From positions 78,482 through 142,481 of the forward strand of contig CAIRHC010000007.1 in the NCBI GenBank assembly GCA_903878275.1: 64,000 nt of DNA, read 5' to 3'. A program made the position numbers and the translations under genes. Position 1 is the first letter of the stretch, and each line of letters starts with the position of its first letter. Positions 3,409-62,086 of this stretch are shown here, piece by piece. This DNA is from Candidatus Vogelbacteria bacterium. GTDB taxonomy: Bacteria > Patescibacteriota > Minisyncoccia > Phycocordibacterales > XYD1-FULL-46-19. The notes under the pieces were generated by a model, which saw only the letters and a list, made by a program, of their open reading frames with translations, had not been told where the DNA came from and ran no database searches.

Positions 3409-3945
3409 ATGAAAATCGCTATTATCTCCGACACTCACGATAACGAGCTTCACGTTCAAAAATTTTTGACTTGGGCAAATGCCAATCAAATTGAAGGCAT
3501 TATTCATTGTGGTGATATCGCTCGTTCGGACACGTTGCATCTTTTACTCGACAACTTTAAAGGTTTGATTAAAGTGGTTTTTGGTAATGCCGAGCTGGAC
3601 AAGGTCGAAATGCTTAAACTTCCAGCCAAGCATCTCAATCTCGAGATTCATTCCGAAGAGGGGGAATGGACGGTCGGTAAATGGCGCCTGTATTTCACTC
3701 ATAAACCAGATCAGATAAATTCACTAGCTGAAAGTAAAAAATATGATTTTATCTTCTATGGACATACTCACAAGCCGTGGATTACCGAAAAAGCGGGGGT
3801 CTGGTTGGTAAATCCTGGGACACTGTCTGGTGCTCTGGAGCATACCAGTTTTGCCGTTTGGGACAGCGAGACCGGTAAGGTGGAATTGAAGGTTTTGGAC
3901 CAGGTGGTGCCCACCCAAAATGAAATGAAGCCACCTCTTATTTAG
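3409..3945 (+). CDS. metallophosphoesterase (YfcE/MJ0936-like phosphodiesterase)
   Basis: IAIISDTHDN..GD, GNAE.D, GHTH motifs of the calcineurin-like phosphoesterase fold. Confidence 0.75.
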   Translation: MKIAIISDTHDNELHVQKFLTWANANQIEGIIHCGDIARSDTLHLLLDNFKGLIKVVFGNAELDKVEMLKLPAKHLNLEIHSEEGEWTVGKWRLYFTHKPDQINSLAESKKYDFIFYGHTHKPWITEKAGVWLVNPGTLSGALEHTSFAVWDSETGKVELKVLDQVVPTQNEMKPPLI

Positions 3946-9762: not shown

Positions 9763-9790
9763 AACCGCCCGAGGCTTGCCTCGGGCGGTT
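9763..9790. repeat. REP-like palindrome family 1 copy
   Basis: aaccgcccgaggcttgcctcgggcggtt. Confidence 0.6.
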
Positions 9791-9824
9791 TAGTTATCCA
9801 CCATTATTTCCCTAAAATCTATCA

Positions 9825-9851
9825 GGGGGGGGGGGCTTTATCTGATATACT
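9825..9851 (+). promoter_or_regulatory. poly-G(11) + TGaTATACT promoter module
   Basis: G11 at 9825-9835, then ctttatctgatatact. Confidence 0.5.
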
Positions 9852-9914
9852 GAATAAAATATTCGGCATTTTTAAGTTTTTAAAATTTATTATTAATAAC
9901 TAATTACAAAAATA

Positions 9915-12629: not shown

Positions 12630-12654
12630 GAAAAATATAGATTAAGAAACGGGA

Positions 12655-21779: not shown

Positions 21780-21841
21780 GAGTGAGGTCGAACCTCACCT
21801 AGGGGATGTCGTTTGTGTTGTAATGTTTTATCTAAAAAATT

Positions 21842-39799: not shown

Positions 39800-40003
39800 T
39801 TGTTGGGCAGGGATTTACCCTAAAGGGTATGAACTTCTCATCTCCGGCCTTCCGAGCAGAAGCCCAAAATTTGATAAAGAATTATCAAATTTTAAATTTT
39901 GCGGAGAGGCAGGGATTTACCCTAAAGGGTATAAACTTCTCATCTCCAGCCTTCCGTGCAGAAATTTAAAATCCGATACAAAAGTATCAAATTTTAAATT
40001 TTG
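39800..40003. repeat. two ~100-bp tandem direct repeats, each beginning with a copy of the tRNA-Ser 3' end (ttttgcggagaggcagggatt)
   Basis: read directly; the overlapping ORF 39786..40049 is a translation artefact. Confidence 0.6.
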
Positions 40004-40092
40004 CGGAGAGGCAGGGATTCGAACCCTGGAACCGATTTTACTCGGTTAACACATTAGCAGTGTGCCCCTTTCGGCCACTCAGGCACCTCTCC
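40004..40092 (-). tRNA. tRNA-Ser (anticodon GCU), class II long variable arm
   Basis: acceptor ggagagg/cctctcc, T-arm cagggttcgaatccctg, anticodon loop ctgctaa. Confidence 0.7.
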
Positions 40093-50841: not shown

Positions 50842-50848
50842 GTGAGAA

Positions 50849-50884
50849 CCCCCAGAATTTGCCAAGGCAAATTCTGGGGGTTCT
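50849..50884 (+). terminator. terminator cccccagaatttgcc-aa-ggcaaattctggggg + T-run
   Basis: perfect 15-bp stem. Confidence 0.7.
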
Positions 50885-50994
50885 GGTTTCCGAGGTCGAA
50901 CCTTAAATCCCCAAAAAGTTTACCCTGTAGTGAAAAATTCTCGTTTTTCTACTACCGGGGGTTCGACTTCAAATTTAAAAAACAAAAAATAATT

Positions 50995-51369
50995 ATGGTC
51001 AAAAAAGAAATAAAATCAAAAGTTACTCTAGAAAGTCTGAATCAGACGGTTGAAAATTTGGCGACCATCACCAATCGTCGTTTTGATGATACTCATAAAT
51101 TGATAGAAAATTTGGCTACCACTATGGCCAAGGGTTTTTCGAATACCAATGAACTGATAGAAAATCTCGCAATTAGCACCAAGGCTGGTTTTGATAAGGT
51201 AGATGAAAGATTAGATAAAGTTGAATCAGATATTACCGTCATAAAATCAGACATTACCGGCATCAAACAACGCCTGACCAGCCTAGACAACCGCCTAGAT
51301 ACGTTTGTCGATCACGAAAAGCGTTTGACCAAAGTGGAGTCCACCTTGAAAATCAGGGTCAAACATTAA
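50995..51369 (+). CDS. coiled-coil protein, paralogue 1 of 3
   Basis: MVKKEIKSKVTLESLNQTVENLA...; C-terminal 30 aa identical to the 55833 copy. Confidence 0.55.
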   Translation: MVKKEIKSKVTLESLNQTVENLATITNRRFDDTHKLIENLATTMAKGFSNTNELIENLAISTKAGFDKVDERLDKVESDITVIKSDITGIKQRLTSLDNRLDTFVDHEKRLTKVESTLKIRVKH

Positions 51370-51621: not shown

Positions 51622-52131
51622 ATGAAAAAATATTTAAATAAATCTAGTGGTTTTACTCTTATTGAACTCCTGGTCGTCATCGCCATCATCGGTATCCTGG
51701 CGGGGATTGTGCTTACTTCGCTATCGAGCGCTAGAAATAAAGCCAATGATGCTAAAATTATTTCACAACTTGGTCAGATCCGTTCAGCTGCCGAATTAAA
51801 TTTTAACCCCAATGATGGTCAAGGCGGCTGGGGCCAGGCAAGCTCTACCCAGACCTGTGGCAATGCGGCCGCACCTACAACACCCCCCACCGTAGCCCCA
51901 CTTTTTAAAAAGCCAGAGTTAGTCAAATTAATTTCTAGTACCGCAGCCCTCTCTAGTGGTGGGACATATTGTAACGTGATCCCTGCCTCGGGTACCGCCC
52001 GAGCTTCTTGGTTATTCGGAGCAACACTTGTTTCAGATACTAGTAAGACCTGGTGCGTTGATTCTTCGGGCAATTCAAAACTAATTACGCCAGGAACAAT
52101 CTTCAACACTGCAATGACTGTTTGCCCATAA
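51622..52131 (+). CDS. type IV pilin (prepilin, class III signal)
   Basis: MKKYLNKSSG|FTLIELLVVIAIIGILAGIV. Confidence 0.88.
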   Translation: MKKYLNKSSGFTLIELLVVIAIIGILAGIVLTSLSSARNKANDAKIISQLGQIRSAAELNFNPNDGQGGWGQASSTQTCGNAAAPTTPPTVAPLFKKPELVKLISSTAALSSGGTYCNVIPASGTARASWLFGATLVSDTSKTWCVDSSGNSKLITPGTIFNTAMTVCP

Positions 52132-52170
52132 ATATAATTTAAAATTATTAACTAACATAATTCAAAATTC

Positions 52171-52671
52171 ATGATTCATAATTCATCTAAAAAAGGTTTC
52201 ACCTTGATCGAGCTTCTTGTTGTCATCGCCATTATCGGTATTTTAGCCGGCATTGTGCTGACTTCACTTAGCACAGCTAGGACCAAGGCTCAAGATGCGC
52301 AGGTTATTTCACAATTAGGTCAAATGCGTTCAGCTGCCGAAATTTATTATTCAGGTACTGGTGGAGGTACGTATGGCGTAGTCGCAAACACTTGCTCGAC
52401 AGGCAGTTCTTTGTTTCTTGATGATACTACTGGTATGGGTAAATTAATTACTTCTACTCTTGCGATTGCTATCGCTGCTAATGTCGATTGTGGTGTTCTT
52501 GCTGGAGGTTCTGCGTGGTCTGTCGCCGCAAAATTGCCCGGCGGTTTATGGTATTGTGTTGACAGTACTGGTGTCTCAAGAGGGAGCACTGCTGCTGGGG
52601 CTGCTTACACTGCTTTGACTGGTGCTGCTAGTGCTGCACATATTTCTGCTGGCGGTTCTGCTTGTAATTAA
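52171..52671 (+). CDS. type IV pilin
   Basis: KKG|FTLIELLVVIAIIGILAGIV; C-terminal Cys pair. Confidence 0.88.
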   Translation: MIHNSSKKGFTLIELLVVIAIIGILAGIVLTSLSTARTKAQDAQVISQLGQMRSAAEIYYSGTGGGTYGVVANTCSTGSSLFLDDTTGMGKLITSTLAIAIAANVDCGVLAGGSAWSVAAKLPGGLWYCVDSTGVSRGSTAAGAAYTALTGAASAAHISAGGSACN

Positions 52672-53547
52672 AGCTGGAGGAGGCTTCGCCTCCTCTCAAA
52701 AACAAGGTGAAACAAGGTGAGGCAAAAACAAGGGGAGGTTGAAACAAGGGGAGGTTGAAACAAGGGGAGGTTGAGCCTCCCCTTTGGCGTTGGTTGTGTT
52801 ATAATATAATCAATGTCTCGTAATATTGAATTAGCGATTGATGAATATTATCACATCTTTAATCATGGCAACGGTGACCGACTAATTTTTATTGACGAAA
52901 AAGATAAAGAGCGATTTGTTAAACTACTCTTTTTAGCTAATGGTTGTAACTCTTTTGATTTTGAAGATCTTTCTTCTGGTCAAGAATTCTCTTTTGATCG
53001 TGGTGAGACACTCGTCGCCATTGGCACGTGGTGTTTAATGGATAATCATTATCATCTATTAATTAAAGAAACCACCGATGGTGGAATTAGTCAGTTTATG
53101 CATCGTCTAGCAACTAGCTATACAATGTATTTCAATCGTCGTCATAGAAAAAGGGGAAGTTTGTTTGAGGGACGGTTTCGAGCAAAACACTTAGGTCAGG
53201 ATGAATATTTAAGACATATCTTTGCTTACACCCATCTCAATCCCGTGAAAATGATTGAGCCAAAATGGAAAGAGGTTGGGTTGAAGAATTTGCCGACAGT
53301 CACTAAATTTTTAAAAGAGTATAGATTTTCTAGCTATCTTGATTATCTCGGCGTTGAGCGAAAAGAAAATAAAATTCTTGATAGAGGAGCTTTTCCGCAA
53401 TACTTTTCAAACCCGGAAGAGATCGAGGTTGAAATGATGGACTGGCTAGATTTCGGTAATTTTTATTAGGGTTAATTTTGGGGTGGGGGTCATCAATATT
53501 ATAACACAAATGATACCCCTAGGGGAGGCTCAACCTCCCGACGGGCA
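52672..53547 (+). mobile_element. IS200/RAYT-like element: HUH Y1 transposase gene flanked by inverted hairpin termini (ggggaggttgagcctcccc ... ttgtgttataatat)
   Basis: left end 52765-52806 and right end 53489-53541 are reverse complements of each other; stuttered partial repeats (aacaaggggaggttga x3) at the left end. Confidence 0.65.
52813..53469 (+). CDS. HUH-superfamily Y1 transposase (IS200-like / REP-associated tyrosine transposase-like)
   Basis: NHYHLL (HxH) and YTHLNPVK (Tyr + NPVK) motifs. Confidence 0.7.
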   Translation: MSRNIELAIDEYYHIFNHGNGDRLIFIDEKDKERFVKLLFLANGCNSFDFEDLSSGQEFSFDRGETLVAIGTWCLMDNHYHLLIKETTDGGISQFMHRLATSYTMYFNRRHRKRGSLFEGRFRAKHLGQDEYLRHIFAYTHLNPVKMIEPKWKEVGLKNLPTVTKFLKEYRFSSYLDYLGVERKENKILDRGAFPQYFSNPEEIEVEMMDWLDFGNFY

Positions 53548-53833
53548 TCAGCGGTAGGGAAGTAGCAAAAAAGCAAAAAGGGGATAACTACTTTTTCTCG
53601 GTTTATTTTTTTGTGGTATCATGCTTAAAGTAATATCAAATTTATTAAAATTATTAGCTTTTAAGAGATGTCCAGAAAATTTTGCTTGGCAAAATTTTCC
53701 GGAAAAGGCTAAAACATCAAAAGACGTTCGCCTAAACAAAAAAAATATGAAAAAAATTAAAGAACTAACCGGAAAAATTTTTTCAGGAAAAAATTTTTCC
53801 GGTCAAGTCCAAAATAATAAAGCCTGCCCCGTA

Positions 53834-54298
53834 GTGAAAAATTCTCGTTTTTCTACTACTGGGGGCTTCACTTTAATCGAATTATTAGTCGTCATTGCCA
53901 TTATCGGTATTTTAGCCGGCATTATTTTGGTTTCCCTAAGTAGCGCCAGGACCAAAGCCAAGACCACTGCCACCTTTGCTTCACTGAATGGTTTAAGACC
54001 AGCGATCGCGATGTGTTGCGGGAATGGGAGTGACTTGGTTGGGGCTGGAACACCACCAGAAACACAAATACCAGCTGTCGGCGGAACAGACATCTGTGAT
54101 GCGGCTAATCCTGTCGGTGTCAATTTACCGACCGCTGCCCAACTTGGGGTTAATATTGTAGAATATACTGCGACGAAAGGTTGTTCTGATCCCGAACCAT
54201 ATTTTTCTGTTCAAACCTCTGGTTCTTCTAATCCTCTTTGTGATAGTGCCGGCACATACACCATCGGTGTCTCAACTTCGTCGTCTCCGTGCAACTAA
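53834..54298 (+). CDS. type IV pilin; GTG start at 53834 preferred, alternative ATG at 53747 would give a 40-aa leader
   Basis: ..KNSRFSTTGG|FTLIELLVVIAIIGILAGII; the sequence between 53747 and 53834 contains a REP-like palindrome. Confidence 0.7.
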   Translation: MKNSRFSTTGGFTLIELLVVIAIIGILAGIILVSLSSARTKAKTTATFASLNGLRPAIAMCCGNGSDLVGAGTPPETQIPAVGGTDICDAANPVGVNLPTAAQLGVNIVEYTATKGCSDPEPYFSVQTSGSSNPLCDSAGTYTIGVSTSSSPCN

Positions 54299-54584
54299 CA
54301 TTAATTAGTAGCGAAGAATTTTATTTTTACCTCAAATTCTTAAGGTTGTGAAAAAGAATAAAGAACTAACCGGAAAAATTTTTTCAGGAAAAAATTTTTC
54401 CGGCCAACCTCATCACCAAAAAGCCTACCCTGATTTCTCGGAGGTCGAACCTTAAATCCCCAAAAAGTTTACCCCGTAGTGAAAAATTCTTATTTTTCTA
54501 CTACTGGGGTTCGACCTCGGAGAATACAACCTCGGGAAAACAGGCTAAAACATCAAAGATGTTCGCCTAAACAAAAACATTTTT

Positions 54585-55163
54585 ATGAAAAAATATTTAC
54601 AACCCACAACCCAGAAACTACAACTTAGCCGTGGCTTCACCTTAATAGAGCTTCTGGTTGTCATCGCCATTATCGGTATTTTGGCGGGCATTGTCCTGAC
54701 TTCGCTTTCTAGCGCTCGAGCAAAAGCCAAAGATTCCGCCCTTATCTCTGGCTTGTCTGGTTTAAGATCGCAGATTGAGACGGTGGCTAGTGATAATTAT
54801 GGACCAATAGTTGGAGCTTGGGGAGTTAAATCGGACGGCACAGGGACAACTGGTTCTAAGGGTGTAACGGATTCGTCTGTTTGTTCTACTTATGCTAGTA
54901 CTGATGGTGGCGTAGTTTATAAAATGATGAAAGATCTAGCCAAACAATCTGGTAATAACGTCGTTTGTGCGGTGGGAGTTGGTGGAAGAACCTGGGTAAT
55001 TTTTGGAGTTTTGCCTAGTACCGCTAATCCTAATGACCCTACTACTGCTGATTATTATTGTTATGATAGTTCTGGTGGTTCTAAAAAACAGGTCGGTTTC
55101 CCGGTGAATGTAGTTGGTGCTGGAGTGGAAAATGTCAATCTTGATGTAAAATGTCAGTCATAG
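54585..55163 (+). CDS. type IV pilin
   Basis: ..LQLSRG|FTLIELLVVIAIIGILAGIV. Confidence 0.88.
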   Translation: MKKYLQPTTQKLQLSRGFTLIELLVVIAIIGILAGIVLTSLSSARAKAKDSALISGLSGLRSQIETVASDNYGPIVGAWGVKSDGTGTTGSKGVTDSSVCSTYASTDGGVVYKMMKDLAKQSGNNVVCAVGVGGRTWVIFGVLPSTANPNDPTTADYYCYDSSGGSKKQVGFPVNVVGAGVENVNLDVKCQS

Positions 55164-55412: not shown

Positions 55413-55754
55413 ATGATTAAAAAAGAAATAAAACCAAAAGTTACTCTAGAAAGTATTAATAATACGATTGAGCACTTGGCTATAAGTGTGGCAAATGGTT
55501 TTGCTGCCGTCGATGAAAGATTTAATAAGGTAGATGAAAGATTTGAGCAGGTAGATAAAAGATTCGATAAGGTTGAAAACGATATTGTCGTGATAAAAAA
55601 AGACTTAAATATCGTCAAGACCGATGTCGCTGTCCTAAAGACCGACTTGCGAAAATTAGACCACAAGATTGGTCTGGTAGATAAAAGAAATCGCGAAGAT
55701 ATCGACGCTCTCGCTTCCGATATGGTGTTGGTCAAGAAAAAAGTGTCTTTATGA
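55413..55754 (+). CDS. coiled-coil protein, paralogue 2
   Basis: MIKKEIKPKVTLE..; FNKVDERFEQVDKRFDKVE heptads. Confidence 0.55.
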   Translation: MIKKEIKPKVTLESINNTIEHLAISVANGFAAVDERFNKVDERFEQVDKRFDKVENDIVVIKKDLNIVKTDVAVLKTDLRKLDHKIGLVDKRNREDIDALASDMVLVKKKVSL

Positions 55755-55832: not shown

Positions 55833-56174
55833 ATGATTAAAAAAGAAATAAAACCAAAAGTTACCTTGGAAGGTCTGAACCAGACGGTTGAGAAATTGGC
55901 TACTAGTATGATCAAGGGTTTTGCTCATACTCACGAGCTGATCGAAAATCTGGCGATCAGCACCAAGGCTGGTTTTGATAAAGTAGACGAAAGATTTGAT
56001 AAAGTGGATGAAAGATTAGATAAAGTGGAGGGGAGATTAGGTAAGGTTGAAAACGACATCACTGGCATCAAACAACGCCTGACCAGCCTAGACAACCGTC
56101 TAGACACTTTTGTCGATCACGAAAAGCGTTTGACCAAAGTCGAATCAGCCTTGAAAATTAGAGTCAAACATTAA
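55833..56174 (+). CDS. coiled-coil protein, paralogue 3
   Basis: MIKKEIKPKVTLE..; C-terminus identical to paralogue 1. Confidence 0.55.
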   Translation: MIKKEIKPKVTLEGLNQTVEKLATSMIKGFAHTHELIENLAISTKAGFDKVDERFDKVDERLDKVEGRLGKVENDITGIKQRLTSLDNRLDTFVDHEKRLTKVESALKIRVKH

Positions 56175-58115: not shown

Positions 58116-58871
58116 ATGCTCGAGACAACCGTTCTTCTCGTTCTTGGTCTACTTATCGGCAGTTTCCTAAATGTCGTGATTCTAAGATACAACACGGGTC
58201 GCTCGCTTGGCGGGCGATCGGGTTGTCTCTCTTGCAATAAGCGTCTTCACTGGTACGAGCTTTTGCCGGTCTTTAGTTACTTGGCACAAAAAGGGAAGTG
58301 TCGTGGTTGTGCTAGTAAAATATCTATTCAATATCCGCTAGTGGAAGTTTCTACCGCAATCCTGTTTGCCTTGGTGGCGTGGCGTTTTGCCGACGATCTG
58401 GTCAATCTGATTTTCTTTTTGCTCGTGATACCAGTACTCGTGGTCTTGGTCGCTTACGACACCAAGCACAAAATCATTCCCAATTTTTTTGTTTATTTTT
58501 TTATTTTTCTGGCTTTAGTGAAAGTCTTATTGATTAGCCCGGGCTGGGATGGCTGGCTCGGGGGCTTGGTCTTGGCTGGTTTTCTTGGTTTTCTTTGGCT
58601 TGTGTCGAGCGGTCGCTGGCTCGGTTTTGGTGACGTAAAATTGGTTCTTGGTATCGGTCTGATTCTGGGCTGGCGAGGTGGCTTGTCGGCGTTGTGTCTT
58701 TCTGTCTGGATTGGTGCCGCAGTCGGTCTTATTTTAATTTTTATTGGTCGGGCGAAGTTGTTTCGTTTTCAAAAATATATTACAATGAAGAGTGAATTAC
58801 CATTTGCTCCATTTTTAGTGTTAGGATTTTTATTAAATCTTTTGTTCTCAATCAATGTTTTGCCTTTTTAA
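58116..58871 (+). CDS. pilD: prepilin peptidase (A24 family)
   Basis: N-terminal CxxC..CxxC zinc knuckle, polytopic; LGLLIGSFLNVVI. Confidence 0.85.
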   Translation: MLETTVLLVLGLLIGSFLNVVILRYNTGRSLGGRSGCLSCNKRLHWYELLPVFSYLAQKGKCRGCASKISIQYPLVEVSTAILFALVAWRFADDLVNLIFFLLVIPVLVVLVAYDTKHKIIPNFFVYFFIFLALVKVLLISPGWDGWLGGLVLAGFLGFLWLVSSGRWLGFGDVKLVLGIGLILGWRGGLSALCLSVWIGAAVGLILIFIGRAKLFRFQKYITMKSELPFAPFLVLGFLLNLLFSINVLPF

Positions 58872-58938
58872 CAAAAAAATAAAGTTGAACTTTGCAAAAA
58901 AACTTGCTTCCTATGAAGGTTCGGCGGTTTACCGGGTA

Positions 58939-59553
58939 GTGAAAAATTCTCATTTTTCTACTGCCCGGCGGGGATTCACGGTCATCGAATTGGTCGTGGT
59001 CATCGCTATTTTTATTATTATCACCGGTATTGTCGTGGCTGATATTCCATCTTTTCAAAATAAAAGTTCGTTGGATCTGACGGTCAGTGAAGTCGCCACT
59101 TATATCCGTGGAGCGCAGGTTTATGGAGCTGTGCAAAAGGATACACCATCAGGAGTAGGAAAATCTGTTTATGGAATTAGCTTAACGCAAGGAGCTTCTG
59201 AATTTTATTTATTTCAGAATGATAAAGCACCTCTTCCGCACAAGGAAAACTACGTCATCAAAGGTTTTGATATAGCTAAGATTTGCCAGAAATCTACTGG
59301 TGGGACTGTTGATTCTTCTGCTTCTAGTTTAGACATAGTCTATACTCCAAGTAATTACGAAGTGAACATCGGGACAGCCGTCGGGGCAATTTTTTATTCT
59401 AATTTTGACGCCGATAACCCTGACGACAATAAAATGTCCGGTATCGAATATGTCGATATAAAAATTAGCAACAAAAGAAATCCCACCCTACCGGGTTGTG
59501 TGCGAGTTTATTCCAACGGGCAGGTGGCTATTACTAATTGTGATGGTTGCTAA
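58939..59553 (+). CDS. minor pilin/pseudopilin (GTG start)
   Basis: (M)KNSHFSTARRG|FTVIELVVVIAIF. Confidence 0.6.
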   Translation: MKNSHFSTARRGFTVIELVVVIAIFIIITGIVVADIPSFQNKSSLDLTVSEVATYIRGAQVYGAVQKDTPSGVGKSVYGISLTQGASEFYLFQNDKAPLPHKENYVIKGFDIAKICQKSTGGTVDSSASSLDIVYTPSNYEVNIGTAVGAIFYSNFDADNPDDNKMSGIEYVDIKISNKRNPTLPGCVRVYSNGQVAITNCDGC

Positions 59554-59569
59554 AAAAAGATTTTTAAAA

Positions 59570-60175
59570 ATGTTTAATAAAATAAAAATTAACAAAGCTG
59601 ATCGGGGAGCGGAAAAATCGGGTCTTTCTGCCGTCCGCGGTTTTACGCTTGTCGAAATGATGGTTTCGGTATCTATTTTTGTCATCGTCGCTTTTATTGT
59701 GGTCTCTACTCTTCTTACGATGTCCGCCGCTTATCGTAAAGCCCAAGCAATGCGCCTGCTTCTGGATAATTTCAACTTCGTTATTCAGTCGATGTCACTT
59801 GGTATCCGAGAGGGGGTTAATTATCGTCAGGGTAGTTTGTGTTCCACGGCAGATAGTTGCATTCAGTTTTTACCGATTGATGCTTGGATGGCAAGTCCTA
59901 TGGGGGATCCTGTCTGCTATGATTATATTTCTCCTACAATATACAAATGTACAGCTTGTCCTTGCTCTGATGTGAACACCAGAACCCAAATCGTTTCTGG
60001 CGATATCATCGTTGATAAATTACAATTTGATATTTTTAACCTTGGAGTTCCCAATAAAAAGAAATTGGTTAAGATTCGGATTGGTGGAAAAACCGGGAAG
60101 ACGTCAAAAGATCTAAGCAGCTTTTTTATCCAAAACTCTGTTTCGCAAAGAAACAAGGATGTTGCGATTCCCTAA
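59570..60175 (+). CDS. minor pilin
   Basis: ..SAVRG|FTLVEMMVSVSIFVIV. Confidence 0.65.
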   Translation: MFNKIKINKADRGAEKSGLSAVRGFTLVEMMVSVSIFVIVAFIVVSTLLTMSAAYRKAQAMRLLLDNFNFVIQSMSLGIREGVNYRQGSLCSTADSCIQFLPIDAWMASPMGDPVCYDYISPTIYKCTACPCSDVNTRTQIVSGDIIVDKLQFDIFNLGVPNKKKLVKIRIGGKTGKTSKDLSSFFIQNSVSQRNKDVAIP

Positions 60176-60177
60176 AA

Positions 60178-60699
60178 ATGGCAAAAAATTATAAAAACAA
60201 AAAAAGAGGATTTACGTTGATCGAGACTTTTGTGGCGATTACGATTTTAATGATCGCCGTTCTTGGTCCGTTATCCTTACTATCTAGTGCTCTTAAAAAT
60301 GCTAGTTATGTGCAAAATGAGATTATTGCTACTTATTTGGCTCAAGAAGGTCTCGAGCTGGTGCTCGACTTAAGAAACAACGGACCGCTTTCGTATGATG
60401 GTGCCTCCGGTTATTTGAATGGGGTATTAATTAGTTTCACTACTCAAAAAGTCACCGACTATACGGGCAATATTTGTCTTAATTCCATTAGTGGTTACTA
60501 TACAGTAGCCGATGCTAATCTCTGTAATAGTGGTGACAAATCAACGATTTTTAAAAGGACAGTTACTATCCATCAGACGGTTTATGATGGCTCTCCATCA
60601 GACGGTCAATTTTGGATTTCTTCATATGTAGATATCGGTAGCCCAGCTCGAAGAGTCCAAACAAGTAATCGAATTTTTATAAATCCACCAACATCTTAA
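60178..60699 (+). CDS. minor pilin (PilV-like)
   Basis: KKRG|FTLIETFVAITILMIAV. Confidence 0.65.
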   Translation: MAKNYKNKKRGFTLIETFVAITILMIAVLGPLSLLSSALKNASYVQNEIIATYLAQEGLELVLDLRNNGPLSYDGASGYLNGVLISFTTQKVTDYTGNICLNSISGYYTVADANLCNSGDKSTIFKRTVTIHQTVYDGSPSDGQFWISSYVDIGSPARRVQTSNRIFINPPTS

Positions 60700-61298
60700 T
60701 GAAACATAATTATTTTAAAAAACAAGGATTTGCCTTACTCTATGCTATTTTGATCAGCGGTGTTATTGCTATTGTGGGTATTATTTTGGTAAACATAACT
60801 ACCAAGCAAATAGTTTTTTCTTCTCTTTCTCGTAATTCTGAAATTTCTTATTATTATTTAGCTAATTCGGCACGAGAATGTTTAGAGCACTATGTTGCGC
60901 TTAACCCAGGTTATATGTTTTATAATAAGGACTGGATTGATCCTTCGAATCACCCACTTGGAACGAGAGTCATTTTTACCGACACCACATCGGCACCCTT
61001 AAAATTAAGTTGTTTTGGAACAAAATATGATGTTGAGTTATTTCTGAATAGCGCCGACCCGAACTATCCAATTTATCGCACCAATGGTAATGTCACGATC
61101 AATGATGTAGCAGGCTCTCGACAAGTAAATTTATCGGTTCAGTTTAATAGTGATTGCGTCTTAAACTTGGGTCATTGTCCAAATTCAACAGGCACCTCTT
61201 TAATTACAAAAAATAGAGCGGTCATAACAACCTATGGCCAAAACCCATCGACTGGTTCCCAAGTGACAAGGAGAACGGCCGTGGCCGCTTTTAATTAG
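60699..61298 (+). CDS. minor pilin (PilX-like)
   Basis: KKQG|FALLYAILISGVIAIVG. Confidence 0.55.
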   Translation: MKHNYFKKQGFALLYAILISGVIAIVGIILVNITTKQIVFSSLSRNSEISYYYLANSARECLEHYVALNPGYMFYNKDWIDPSNHPLGTRVIFTDTTSAPLKLSCFGTKYDVELFLNSADPNYPIYRTNGNVTINDVAGSRQVNLSVQFNSDCVLNLGHCPNSTGTSLITKNRAVITTYGQNPSTGSQVTRRTAVAAFN

Positions 61299-61306
61299 AG
61301 GCAAAT

Positions 61307-61530
61307 AAGAAAAAGGCAAGGTTCAAAAAGGCAAGGTTCAACCTTACCTCTGGGTACCATTTGTGTTGTAATATTTTTAAGCTTAACGGGTATAAAAAAA
61401 GGCAAGGTTCAACCTTACCTCTGGGTACCATTTGTGTTGTAATATTTAAAACTGTTTCGAAGGTAGGAAAAAGGCAAGGTTCAACCTTACCTCTGGGTAC
61501 CATTTGTGTTGTAATATTTTTAAGCTTAAC
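61307..61530. repeat. tandem array of three ~52-bp units (aaaaaggcaaggttcaaccttacctctgggtaccatttgtgttgtaatattt), period ~77 bp
   Basis: three identical copies read directly; each is a hairpin plus a TTGTGTTGTAAT tail like the RAYT element termini. Confidence 0.7.
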
Positions 61531-61768
61531 GGGTATAAAAAATCTTTTTCAATTTGTCATCGCTAAAACATCTCTCCAGTGAACGTAAAATAGATTTTAG
61601 CGTTCCTCGATCAAGCTCTTCGTGCAGGGGAATAGTTATGAAATAAGCCACTTTACCGACTTTCATTACTAATCTGGCGTGGCTACCTTTTTGTCTAATT
61701 TTCAAAAAACCTTCGGCGAGAAGAATTTGCAATAGGTTTTTACCAGAAATTCTGCGAAGTTTAGGCAT
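61526..61768 (-). CDS. hicA: HicA-family mRNA interferase toxin
   Basis: MPKLRRISGK.L..IL...GF...RQKGSHARL. Confidence 0.8.
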   Translation of the reverse strand: MPKLRRISGKNLLQILLAEGFLKIRQKGSHARLVMKVGKVAYFITIPLHEELDRGTLKSILRSLERCFSDDKLKKIFYTR

Positions 61769-61988
61769 GAGCGATTTCCGAAAAATCCATATTCATCATC
61801 ACTGGTGGAAAAGCATTTTTGATGTTTTTACCAGAAAAATCGTCAAGGCTGATTTCGATTGCCTCACGAATATTATTAAGAAGATCTTCAAAAGTTTTCC
61901 CTTGCGTAATTATTGCCAGACTATCTGCCGATGCAACGTAAAAACCATCTTCTCCTTTTGAAATTTGAAAGGTAACAATCTTGTTCAT
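61761..61988 (-). CDS. hicB: HicB-family antitoxin
   Basis: small protein overlapping hicA by 8 nt; the upstream gene of the hicBA pair. Confidence 0.65.
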   Translation of the reverse strand: MNKIVTFQISKGEDGFYVASADSLAIITQGKTFEDLLNNIREAIEISLDDFSGKNIKNAFPPVMMNMDFSEIAHA

Positions 61989-62086
61989 AAGATGTATATT
62001 ATCACACAAAAGTAAGGTAAATCAAGCTAGCTTAACTACGTATTTGCAAATTTCCTATTTTTTCTTGTTTTCTCTATAATTAGCAG

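Follow-up and report, generated by a model that had tools for sequence, protein, structure and literature searches.

The only open reading frame in the region 52672-53547 of the window (by which we mean the whole 64-kb stretch of DNA that was analysed) encodes a protein of 218 amino acids, which is predicted to be a domesticated class-2 Y1 HUH single-strand DNA nuclease/ligase. The best explanation, to which we give a probability of about 0.7, is that of a resident RAYT-like Y1 enzyme in a REPtron/TIRtron-like arrangement, in which inverted copies of the cognate repeat stand on either side of the gene. Family membership, fold, repeat architecture, conservation over about 80 loci, synteny, purifying selection and low copy number are shown directly. 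Arrangements of this kind are already known; the lineage is new, and the variant features are the grammar of the hairpin apex and an apparently promoter-bearing repeat.

Sequence and predicted fold of the protein

The gene extends from 52813 to 53469 on the plus strand. The preliminary description had pointed out the motifs NHYHLL and Y..NPVK in its 218-residue product and had placed it among the Y1 HUH transposases, and both the reading frame and the assignment were borne out. NHYHLL occupies residues 78-83 and YTHLNPVK residues 139-146; the HUH motif is made up of H79 and H81, the catalytic tyrosine is Y139, and all three residues are invariant in an alignment of 44 homologues. The protein scores 35.8 bits against Pfam PF01797 (Y1_Tnp; gathering cut-off 23), a family that is matched by all 44 aligned homologues. 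An AlphaFold model built on this alignment is confident (pLDDT 91.5, pTM 0.89) and has the HUH fold, with the HUH motif and the catalytic tyrosine conserved. A phmmer/profile search of PDB chain sequences returned nothing significant, with 4er8 at E 0.27, and it is fold comparisons, not sequence, that are informative on the relation to PDB structures. The C-terminal part from about residue 146 to 218 is kept across the 44 homologues, including W152, W211 and the serines of a proximal-tail F-S-S-Y, of which S173 is invariant and S174 at least 90% conserved. Pfam gave no match to a C-terminal domain of the HTH/Bac_DnaA_C, HTH_23 or HTH_28 type in any of the 44 members at E <= 10.

Y1 enzymes with Y---NP were assigned to class 2 (TnpA_REP-like) and those with Y---Q to class 1/IS200 by Quentin et al. 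2018 (PMC6006769). The protein reads Y139-T-H-L-N143-P144, with N143 invariant and P144 at least 90% conserved in the 44 homologues, and on the strength of this class-2 signature and its other motifs we filed it as a class-2, RAYT-like Y1 enzyme. Judged from its sequence it is a Y1 HUH enzyme nearer to the RAYTs than to the TnpA of IS200. Transposases of the IS200/IS605 type (IS608, ISDra2, IS200) carry Y---Q and have about 130-150 residues, whereas here we find Y---NP and 218 residues; their elements are multi-copy, have distinct left and right hairpins on the same strand and often tnpB, none of which is seen here. One copy of the gene is present in the window, as in each related locus of 16-21 kb.

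Inverted hairpin units at both ends of the gene

A unit of hairpin and tail lies on each side of the gene. The left unit (52763-52809, plus strand; covariance model 60.3 bits, E 2e-16) and the right unit (53494-53541, minus strand; 61.4 bits, E 1e-16) form an inverted repeat. The left hairpin GGGGAGGTTGAGCCTCCCC at 52764-52782 recurs as its reverse complement at 53521-53539, with the 19-nt arms of the inverted repeat 100% complementary, loop included, and the tail TTGTGTTATAATAT at 52794-52807 recurs as its reverse complement at 53496-53509 with 14 of 14 positions. The order on the right side of the gene, tail and then hairpin, mirrors that on the left. Hairpin and tail are separated by a spacer of 10-12 nt, 11 nt on the left, whose sequence differs between left and right. 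The pattern of the GGGGAGGTTGAGCCTCCCC hairpin had no chance match in 100 shuffles. The reverse-complementary ends that had been reported before are, in other words, exact inverted copies of a 19-nt hairpin and a 14-nt tail. Rfam had no match at the hairpin units; its matches in the window were one tmRNA and two tRNAs only.

The left unit is preceded by a stutter (52701-52775, plus strand) of five tandem partial copies of 10, 16, 16, 16 and 16 nt, which contain the 5' flank, the 5' arm and most of the loop of the left hairpin. Tandem Repeats Finder reported this array at 52708-52774 with a period of 16, 4.2 copies and 88% matches, in agreement with the stuttered left end of the preliminary description, and a second, half-hairpin array at 61310-61341 with a period of 15 and 2.1 copies. 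Similar stutters are present in the related loci L001, L005, L008, L022 and L047. Within the window's clade, a half-hairpin stutter was seen at at least eight independent units, always on the side opposite to the tail.

Cognate hairpins across the family

The pairing of the gene with a hairpin of its own is not restricted to the window. Inverted units flank the Y1 gene in every syntenic relative, and the sample was extended by 80 further family loci taken from metagenomes. In 41 of the 70 loci with sufficient flanking sequence, the 150 nt preceding the start codon and the 150 nt following the stop codon have 13 or more consecutive nt in common, where the 99th percentile for mismatched locus pairs, used as a null, was 12 nt; the shared sequence was inverted in 26 of these loci, direct in 10 and palindromic in 5, and the remaining 29 of the 70 shared no flank sequence of this length. 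With few exceptions the shared sequences form hairpins whose apex is AGG-N5-CCT and whose stem base is specific to the lineage. Counting only perfect stems of 6 bp or more, hairpins of this kind occur up to 100 nt upstream of the gene in 46 of 78 loci, around the stop codon in 48 of 73, and on both sides in 37 of 69. Elsewhere in 314 kb of loci only 19 hairpins of this class were found (1.65 are expected per whole set of loci after shuffling), and several of these are identical to the local flanking hairpin.

The loop co-varies between left and right within a genome: in the window both flanks have TTGAG, and L005, L025 and L115 have TTTCG. Among 18 units of the window's clade, the three pairs of the apex are constant, whereas the stem base shows compensatory changes in three of the four basal pairs (three of all seven), with a score reached by none of 500 shuffles. 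Flank sharing, apex hairpins on both sides, co-varying loops and compensatory changes together argue for a protein and a hairpin that evolve as a pair, and as far as sequences can tell the pattern is the signature of such a pair, as in REPtrons. That the flanking hairpins are cognate to the gene, as had been proposed, is hence a property of the family and not of one locus. Variants exist as well: inverted doublets of the REPIN type occur in some family loci, hairpins within the Y1 reading frame in some, and in L008 and L009 the flanking copies are direct instead of inverted.

The tail as a putative promoter

The preliminary description had noted a conserved tail next to each hairpin. Its conservation was confirmed; it need not serve the transposase for recognition, however, and is best read as an extended -10 promoter. 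The tail has the form TGTG-T-TATAAT, a perfect -10 hexamer at 52800-52805 with a TG/'TRTG' extension, and the ATG of the Y1 gene starts 7 nt after the hexamer. A distance of 6-7 nt between a -10-like box and the start codon was found in 39 of the 64 family loci with such a box (80 were examined), as against 10 of 113 other genes, and a Shine-Dalgarno-like sequence was present in one of the 80 family loci. Because of the extended -10, the conserved spacing to the ATG and the near-absence of Shine-Dalgarno sequences, the putative promoter of the left unit most likely gives rise to a leaderless Y1 mRNA. From the 3' foot of the hairpin to the ATG the median distance in the family loci is 24 nt; the hairpin would accordingly lie immediately 5' of the core promoter, a position that would permit autoregulation. 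A simple sigma-70 scan did not call the tail a promoter, since the scan needs a -35 hexamer and the tail has no -35 box. We infer promoter activity from the extended -10 sequence of the tail and its conserved spacing to the ATG.

Extended -10 boxes without a hairpin are found upstream of other genes, for example TGTGTGATAAT and TGTGATATAAT, and the tail therefore looks like an ordinary strong promoter that was absorbed into the repeat in this clade. In L008 a unit that was outside the training set of the covariance model immediately precedes a Fic gene, again at a spacing of 7 nt. Mobile promoters, or promoter-bearing small repeats, are short repeats with a good -10 box upstream of unrelated genes, and the present units resemble them in that a unit with a -10 box stands upstream of the Y1 gene and of the Fic gene; mobile promoters have no known tie to a Y1 enzyme. 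The tail of the right unit is directed into the 3' end of the Y1 gene, and the promoters of three further units at 61.3 kb are likewise aimed at gene 3' ends, so not every copy is placed for regulation.

These observations bear on the possibility that the units are purely regulatory modules under selection, a terminator or insulator combined with a promoter, and that the Y1 protein has an unrelated host function such as the processing of single-stranded DNA that enters the cell by way of the type IV pilus. The two flanks would then resemble each other by local gene conversion. The tail as the organism's general extended -10 consensus, with the hairpin-less examples just given, is in line with this possibility, and so are the occurrence of units exactly where a leaderless promoter would be needed (at the Y1 gene, and at the Fic gene in L008), the low copy number and the location of the gene within a pilus/competence-like cluster in the window's clade. 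Independent regulatory needs do not explain, however, why a lineage-specific hairpin stands on both sides of the gene, in either orientation, in 37-41 of about 70 loci, nor do they fit with the right unit and the three 61.3-kb units that point at gene 3' ends, with family hairpins inside the Y1 reading frame or in REPIN-like doublets, or with distant homologues (66%, 55% and 50% identity) that are encoded outside pilus clusters. We therefore consider purely regulatory units unlikely and favour a resident Y1 enzyme with its cognate repeats.

Synteny and inheritance

The gene is part of a type IV pilus cluster with the order pilM ... pilB - response regulator - pilT - pilC - pilin(s) - Y1 - ... 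- prepilin peptidase (pilD) - pseudopilins - ligA. It is found at the identical position in three other lineages (L001-L004, L005-L006 and L115), whose Y1 proteins are 75-76% (L001 and L005 orthologues) and 73% (L115) identical to that of the window. The neighbours have diverged to a similar extent: PilC is 70-72%, PilB 72-75%, PilT 85% and LigA 75% identical. Among the syntenic Y1 orthologues dN is 0.12-0.19 and dS is saturated. Since the site is syntenic and the Y1 protein diverged like its housekeeping neighbours, the gene is an old resident and not a recent insertion; the neighbour-like identities, the low dN at saturated dS and the single copy indicate that it co-evolved with its neighbours under purifying selection. 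The earlier view of an insertion that split the pilin array is not supported for the genome of the window, as the L001, L005 and L115 lineages have the gene at the same place and at a divergence like that of PilB, PilC and LigA.

The comparison with empty sites that had been suggested showed three lineages occupied at the same site and one related lineage empty. The latter, L114 (PilC 72%), has the cluster without the Y1 gene; there, an ordinary terminator comes after the pilin gene and then the next promoter, without a hairpin unit, and the covariance model found no unit in this locus. A single gain or a single loss explains the pattern of presence and absence. This comparison covers relatives at the distances given, as the contigs of the closest PilC relatives (87-88% identity; labelled Candidatus Vogelbacteria or Paceibacterota) end at or just past pilC or have no DNA on file.

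An active IS of the IS200/IS605 type that moved recently into the pilin array, with the hairpins as its subterminal left and right ends, would likewise have a Pfam Y1_Tnp match, hairpins near both ends and an empty site in a related lineage such as L114. It is contradicted by the single copy, the identical inverted ends, the length of 218 residues, the Y---NP signature and the syntenic position in three other lineages, and we regard it as highly improbable.

The same low standing has to be given to an invertible or recombinogenic switch for pilin variation, comparable to Piv in Moraxella, with the inverted repeats as crossover sites and the Y1 enzyme as the agent that would rearrange pilin genes or their promoters. 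Inverted repeats do flank a recombinase-like gene between paralogous pilin genes, and the number of pilin paralogues around the gene varies among the lineages. Both promoter-like tails point inward, though, so that inversion alters nothing outside the segment; the flanking copies are direct in L008 and L009; most family members are not located beside pilins; and no variant of opposite orientation was found in the four contigs that carry the P0002 gene (L001-L004). Such a switch is very hard to reconcile with these data.

More distant Y1 homologues (the 66%, 55% and 50% identical proteins mentioned above) have unrelated gene contexts, and the link to pilins is thus a property of a small clade and not of the family. 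A protein search retrieved 964 relatives, nearly all of 215-235 residues and each typically on one to few contigs; those with a name are all Patescibacteria (Nomurabacteria, Vogelbacteria, Paceibacterota). A profile search in 1.84 billion cluster representatives gave 1,104 clusters (50% identity) at E <= 1e-30. The clade is large and, as far as named sources show, confined to Patescibacteria (CPR).

Dispersed units and copy number

A covariance model was made from 16 units of the window genome and its relatives and run on the whole window with filters off. It found exactly six full-length units with E <= 6e-13, and the next-best match had 17.9 bits. Besides the two flanking units, these are 21780-21828, 61329-61376, 61400-61447 and 61472-61519, all on the plus strand, and the six occupy four sites. 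TGTGTTRTAAT occurs exactly six times in the window and is preceded by such a hairpin in all six cases. The hairpin-tail repeat is hence a low-copy repeat, with six units at four sites in 64 kb.

The unit at 21780-21828 (49.0 bits, E 6e-13) consists of the hairpin GTGAGG-TCGAA-CCTCAC and the tail TTTGTGTTGTAAT and lies between the gene of a 610-aa surface protein and a 73-aa open reading frame. The three units within 61329-61519 (52.7 bits each) have a period of 71 nt and follow the half-hairpin stutter at 61310-61341; they have the last pseudopilin gene on one side and, on the other, a convergent hicBA module, whose 3' end they face. All units away from the Y1 gene are intergenic. The three copies at 61.3 kb are one tandem array and not independent insertions. 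The recurrence at 21.8 and 61.3 kb described earlier was found again, as four additional units, but with the three at 61.3 kb in a single 71-nt tandem array. With so few units, three of them in one array, the idea that they were mobilised around the genome rests on few events. In L001, L004, L005 and L114 the pseudopilin operon directly adjoins ligA and the block 61299-62086 is absent, which indicates that the three units together with hicBA are an insertion in the window's lineage. A degenerate inverted unit in the hicB promoter region (61994-62013, minus strand) was considered and rejected, as the alignment gave no support and the covariance model 9.1 bits (E 1.4). As this region is not supported as a unit, hicBA as a cassette flanked by units was rejected too.

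The dispersed hairpins, GTGAGG-TCGAA and GCAAGG-TTCAA, differ from the flanking GGGAGG-TTGAG and are therefore not recent copies of the flanking units. GTGAGG-TCGAA-CCTCAC is also present upstream of the Y1 gene in L001 and the GG-TTCAA-CC type downstream of it; since the variants recur in other genomes, the hairpin subfamilies must be older than these lineages. The covariance model detected units outside its training set in L008 and L022, and a second contig of GCA_964639285.1 (L025; the genome of L005) carries a unit with the same loop as L005. A pattern scan for the unit in species-representative genomes, which do not include that of the window, gave 22 stretches, mostly chance-like and in unrelated taxa.

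Relation to known systems and proposed mechanism

With the RAYT/REP systems (E. coli YafM, structure 4er8; the RAYTs of Pseudomonas) the arrangement shares a gene that is flanked by its own cognate palindromic repeat. The differences are considerable. In canonical REPs the hairpin foot carries the tetranucleotide GT[AG]G; our unit alignments show conservation of the AGG/CCT apex, of a GG within the spacer and of the tail, with neither GTAG nor GTGG at the foot. The 218-aa protein scores 42.8 bits against NCBIfam NF047646 (REP_Tyr_transpos), over the same region as the Y1_Tnp match and below the curated equivalog cut-off of 80. As it falls short of this cut-off and the repeat lacks a GT[AG]G foot, the system is not canonical RAYT/REP. 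The preliminary description was right in preferring a RAYT to an IS200 TnpA in so far as Y---NP brings the protein nearer to RAYTs, but not in the sense of a canonical RAYT. Furthermore, canonical REPs number hundreds per genome, and for the REPIN-associated RAYT groups 2 and 3 there are reports of 57-140 copies of flanking 16-mers, whereas here a handful per 64 kb, far fewer, is found, and there are no REPIN doublets in the 64-kb window. Finally, the unit of this lineage has a promoter-like tail, the C-terminal domain of the 218-aa protein is a different, conserved one, and the hosts are Patescibacteria instead of Proteobacteria.

The closest published relative, by published motifs only and not by HMMs or a tree, appears to be subclass 2.1 of Quentin et al. 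2018 (PMC6006769), which is described by NH[YF]H, Y[IV]HLNP, SS in the proximal tail and about 238 residues. In the same study, subclass 2.1 was equated with the TIRYTs of Di Nocera et al. 2013 (PMC3733652) and matched to Bertels group 1 (Table 1), and no REP-like structures were found for it, whereas the clade described here has a conserved hairpin on both sides. The likeness to TIRYTs and TIRtrons comprises NH[YF]H, a Y[IV]HLNP-like motif (here YTHLNP, with T for I/V), SS in the proximal tail (S173/S174), a length of about 220-240 residues (here 218), flanks that are inverted repeats rather than GTAG REPs, repeat families that are moderately abundant or absent, and TIRs that are in some cases partly self-complementary. 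In contrast, an HTH/Bac_DnaA_C-like distal tail is not detectable in the 44 members here, and the GGGGWSAS motif of many TIRs is not present as such, with GGGGAGGT matching it at 6 of 8 positions; the stems of other family members are unrelated. In a full-text search of the literature, of incomplete coverage, which combined RAYT/REPIN terms with the names of CPR taxa, we found no paper that treats both together.

How the system could work can be outlined by analogy. We infer nuclease activity, hairpin recognition, promoter activity and a role of the protein as spreader of the units from the comparisons above. The repeat of this lineage has about 47 nt: a short hairpin, in which the AGG-N5-CCT apex is conserved and the stem base varies, is followed by some 12 nt of spacer and by an extended -10 (TGTG-n-TATAAT). 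The left unit would supply the promoter of the gene and the right unit would aim an identical promoter antisense into its 3' end. The protein may recognise hairpins that are extruded in single-stranded DNA, as E. coli TnpA_REP and IS608 TnpA do, and, going by the biochemistry of these two enzymes, would cut beside the hairpin via a 5'-phosphotyrosine intermediate and rejoin the strands. Rare copying of units to other intergenic sites could account for those at 21.8 and 61.3 kb, and the flanking copies would be homogenised.

The textbook example of a mobile element that has settled in bacterial genomes for the long term and is passed on vertically is provided by the RAYT/REPIN systems. Most of those characterised come from Proteobacteria; further subclasses are on record for Cyanobacteria and Bacteroidetes. 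The present case extends a RAYT-like logic, that is, a single copy, cognate hairpins on both sides and purifying selection, to ultra-small genomes in which each repeat is a cost, and it does so with a different hairpin grammar: an AGG-N5-CCT apex, no GTAG and, in the lineage of the window, a putative promoter built into the repeat. For annotators this is a reason not to label such genes plain 'transposase' or as insertion breakpoints, and a 218-aa protein with a 47-nt unit offers a compact system for the study of hairpin recognition. It is tempting to go further and to speculate that Patescibacteria carry a phylum-wide, previously undescribed RAYT-like system, in which a domesticated Y1 nuclease keeps up a hairpin cassette and now and then spreads it, a cassette that in the window's lineage would include a complete leaderless promoter; in this breadth the proposal is doubtful. 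If it were true, the enzyme would distribute portable promoters and insulators within very small genomes, cleavage in the loop would have left the half-hairpin stutters as its footprints, and DnaA-box 9-mers outside the hairpins would point to a replication- or DnaA-assisted extrusion of the hairpin.

Further elements next to the units

Directly 3' of the stop codon of the pilin gene, at 52677-52695 on the plus strand, the window has an extra hairpin of the apex type, GAGGAGG-CTTCG-CCTCCTC, which has no tail. It was found by a hairpin scan and by DNA folding, and as a partial match of 13.7 bits by the covariance model, and its loop is of the type seen in L001 in the unit that precedes the Y1 gene.

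The DnaA-box 9-mer TTATCCACA is, for part of the family, about 29-fold enriched just outside the hairpins. Upstream copies of TTATCCACA keep a constant position, -60 to -72 relative to the ATG, and the window has this 9-mer in a version with two mismatches only.

Elements at the Y1 genes

The exact DnaA-box 9-mer TTATCCACA is enriched beside the genes that encode the Y1 HUH (RAYT-like) tyrosine nuclease. In flanks of 150 nt on each side of the Y1 genes of the family loci (homologous Y1 loci from Patescibacteria), its density is 0.86/kb upstream and 0.35/kb downstream, compared to a background of 0.03/kb in the rest of these loci; examples are L090, L010, L038, L042, L072, L087 and L093. The upstream copies are found at a constant distance from the ATG (−60 to −72), immediately outside the hairpin foot, and in both orientations. 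In the window, the 9-mer is present only in a version with two mismatches (53578-53586). A DnaA_C-like tail is a published feature of TnpA_Y1 proteins of subclass 2.1 (classification of Quentin et al. 2018, PMC6006769); in the Y1 proteins of the present clade, such a tail was not detectable.

Cognate hairpins are also present within the Y1 coding sequence itself, with the reading frame intact, in L048, L069, L081, L092 and L009. Two of them are located around 160 nt from the start and others close to the 3′ end. Such intragenic hairpins had previously been reported for TnpA_Y1 subclass 2.4 only.

The hairpins of several units, the repeats of around 47 nt that combine a hairpin with a promoter-like tail, are accompanied by stutters, i.e., tandem partial duplications of the flank, the 5′ arm and part of the loop. 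These were found repeatedly, at independent units and in several genomes: in the window (52701-52775 and 61310-61341), in L001 (9872-9900 and 9941-9958), L005 (9925-9956), L008 (9860-9890) and L022 (~3590-3620), and, in L047, upstream of its Y1 gene. They sit invariably on the side of the hairpin opposite the promoter tail, and might point to a site within the loop that is cleaved, or to slippage induced by the hairpin.

Lineages with and without the Y1 gene or the hicBA block

L114 (JGI Ga0376277_0000094), a related lineage, has the same pilus cluster as the window, with a PilC that is 72% identical. The intergenic stretch after its pilin gene (9764-9884) contains neither a Y1 gene nor a unit, only a plain terminator consisting of a hairpin and a T-run; this is an 'empty site'.

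An insertion, a block of ~790 bp (61299-62086), lies between the pseudopilin operon and ligA of the window, relative to L001, L004, L005 and L114. It consists of three tandem units and a toxin-antitoxin pair, hicB-hicA, in convergent orientation (61526-62009, minus strand). In L115, this junction is occupied by another, PaaX-like gene. In L008, units at 12636, 12690 and 13362 flank a relB-yafQ pair. Small toxin-antitoxin cassettes and units therefore tend to co-occur.

Other features of the window

At 51622-55163 and 58855-61298 there are numerous type IV pilin/pseudopilin paralogues that share the conserved N-terminus GFTLIELLVVIAIIGILA. Their number around the Y1 gene varies among lineages: upstream of it there are two in the window and L001, and one in L005 and L115. 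Scattered between the pilin genes of the window are three small paralogous coiled-coil ORFs (50842-51369, 55413-55754 and 55833-56174), in which TRF detected 21-nt tandem repeats at 55512-55573 and 55977-56044.

The 3′ portion of a tRNA gene (40004-40092, minus strand) is overlapped by a 102-nt tandem repeat (39806-40019; 2.1 copies, 89% matches), which could be an integration-site duplication.
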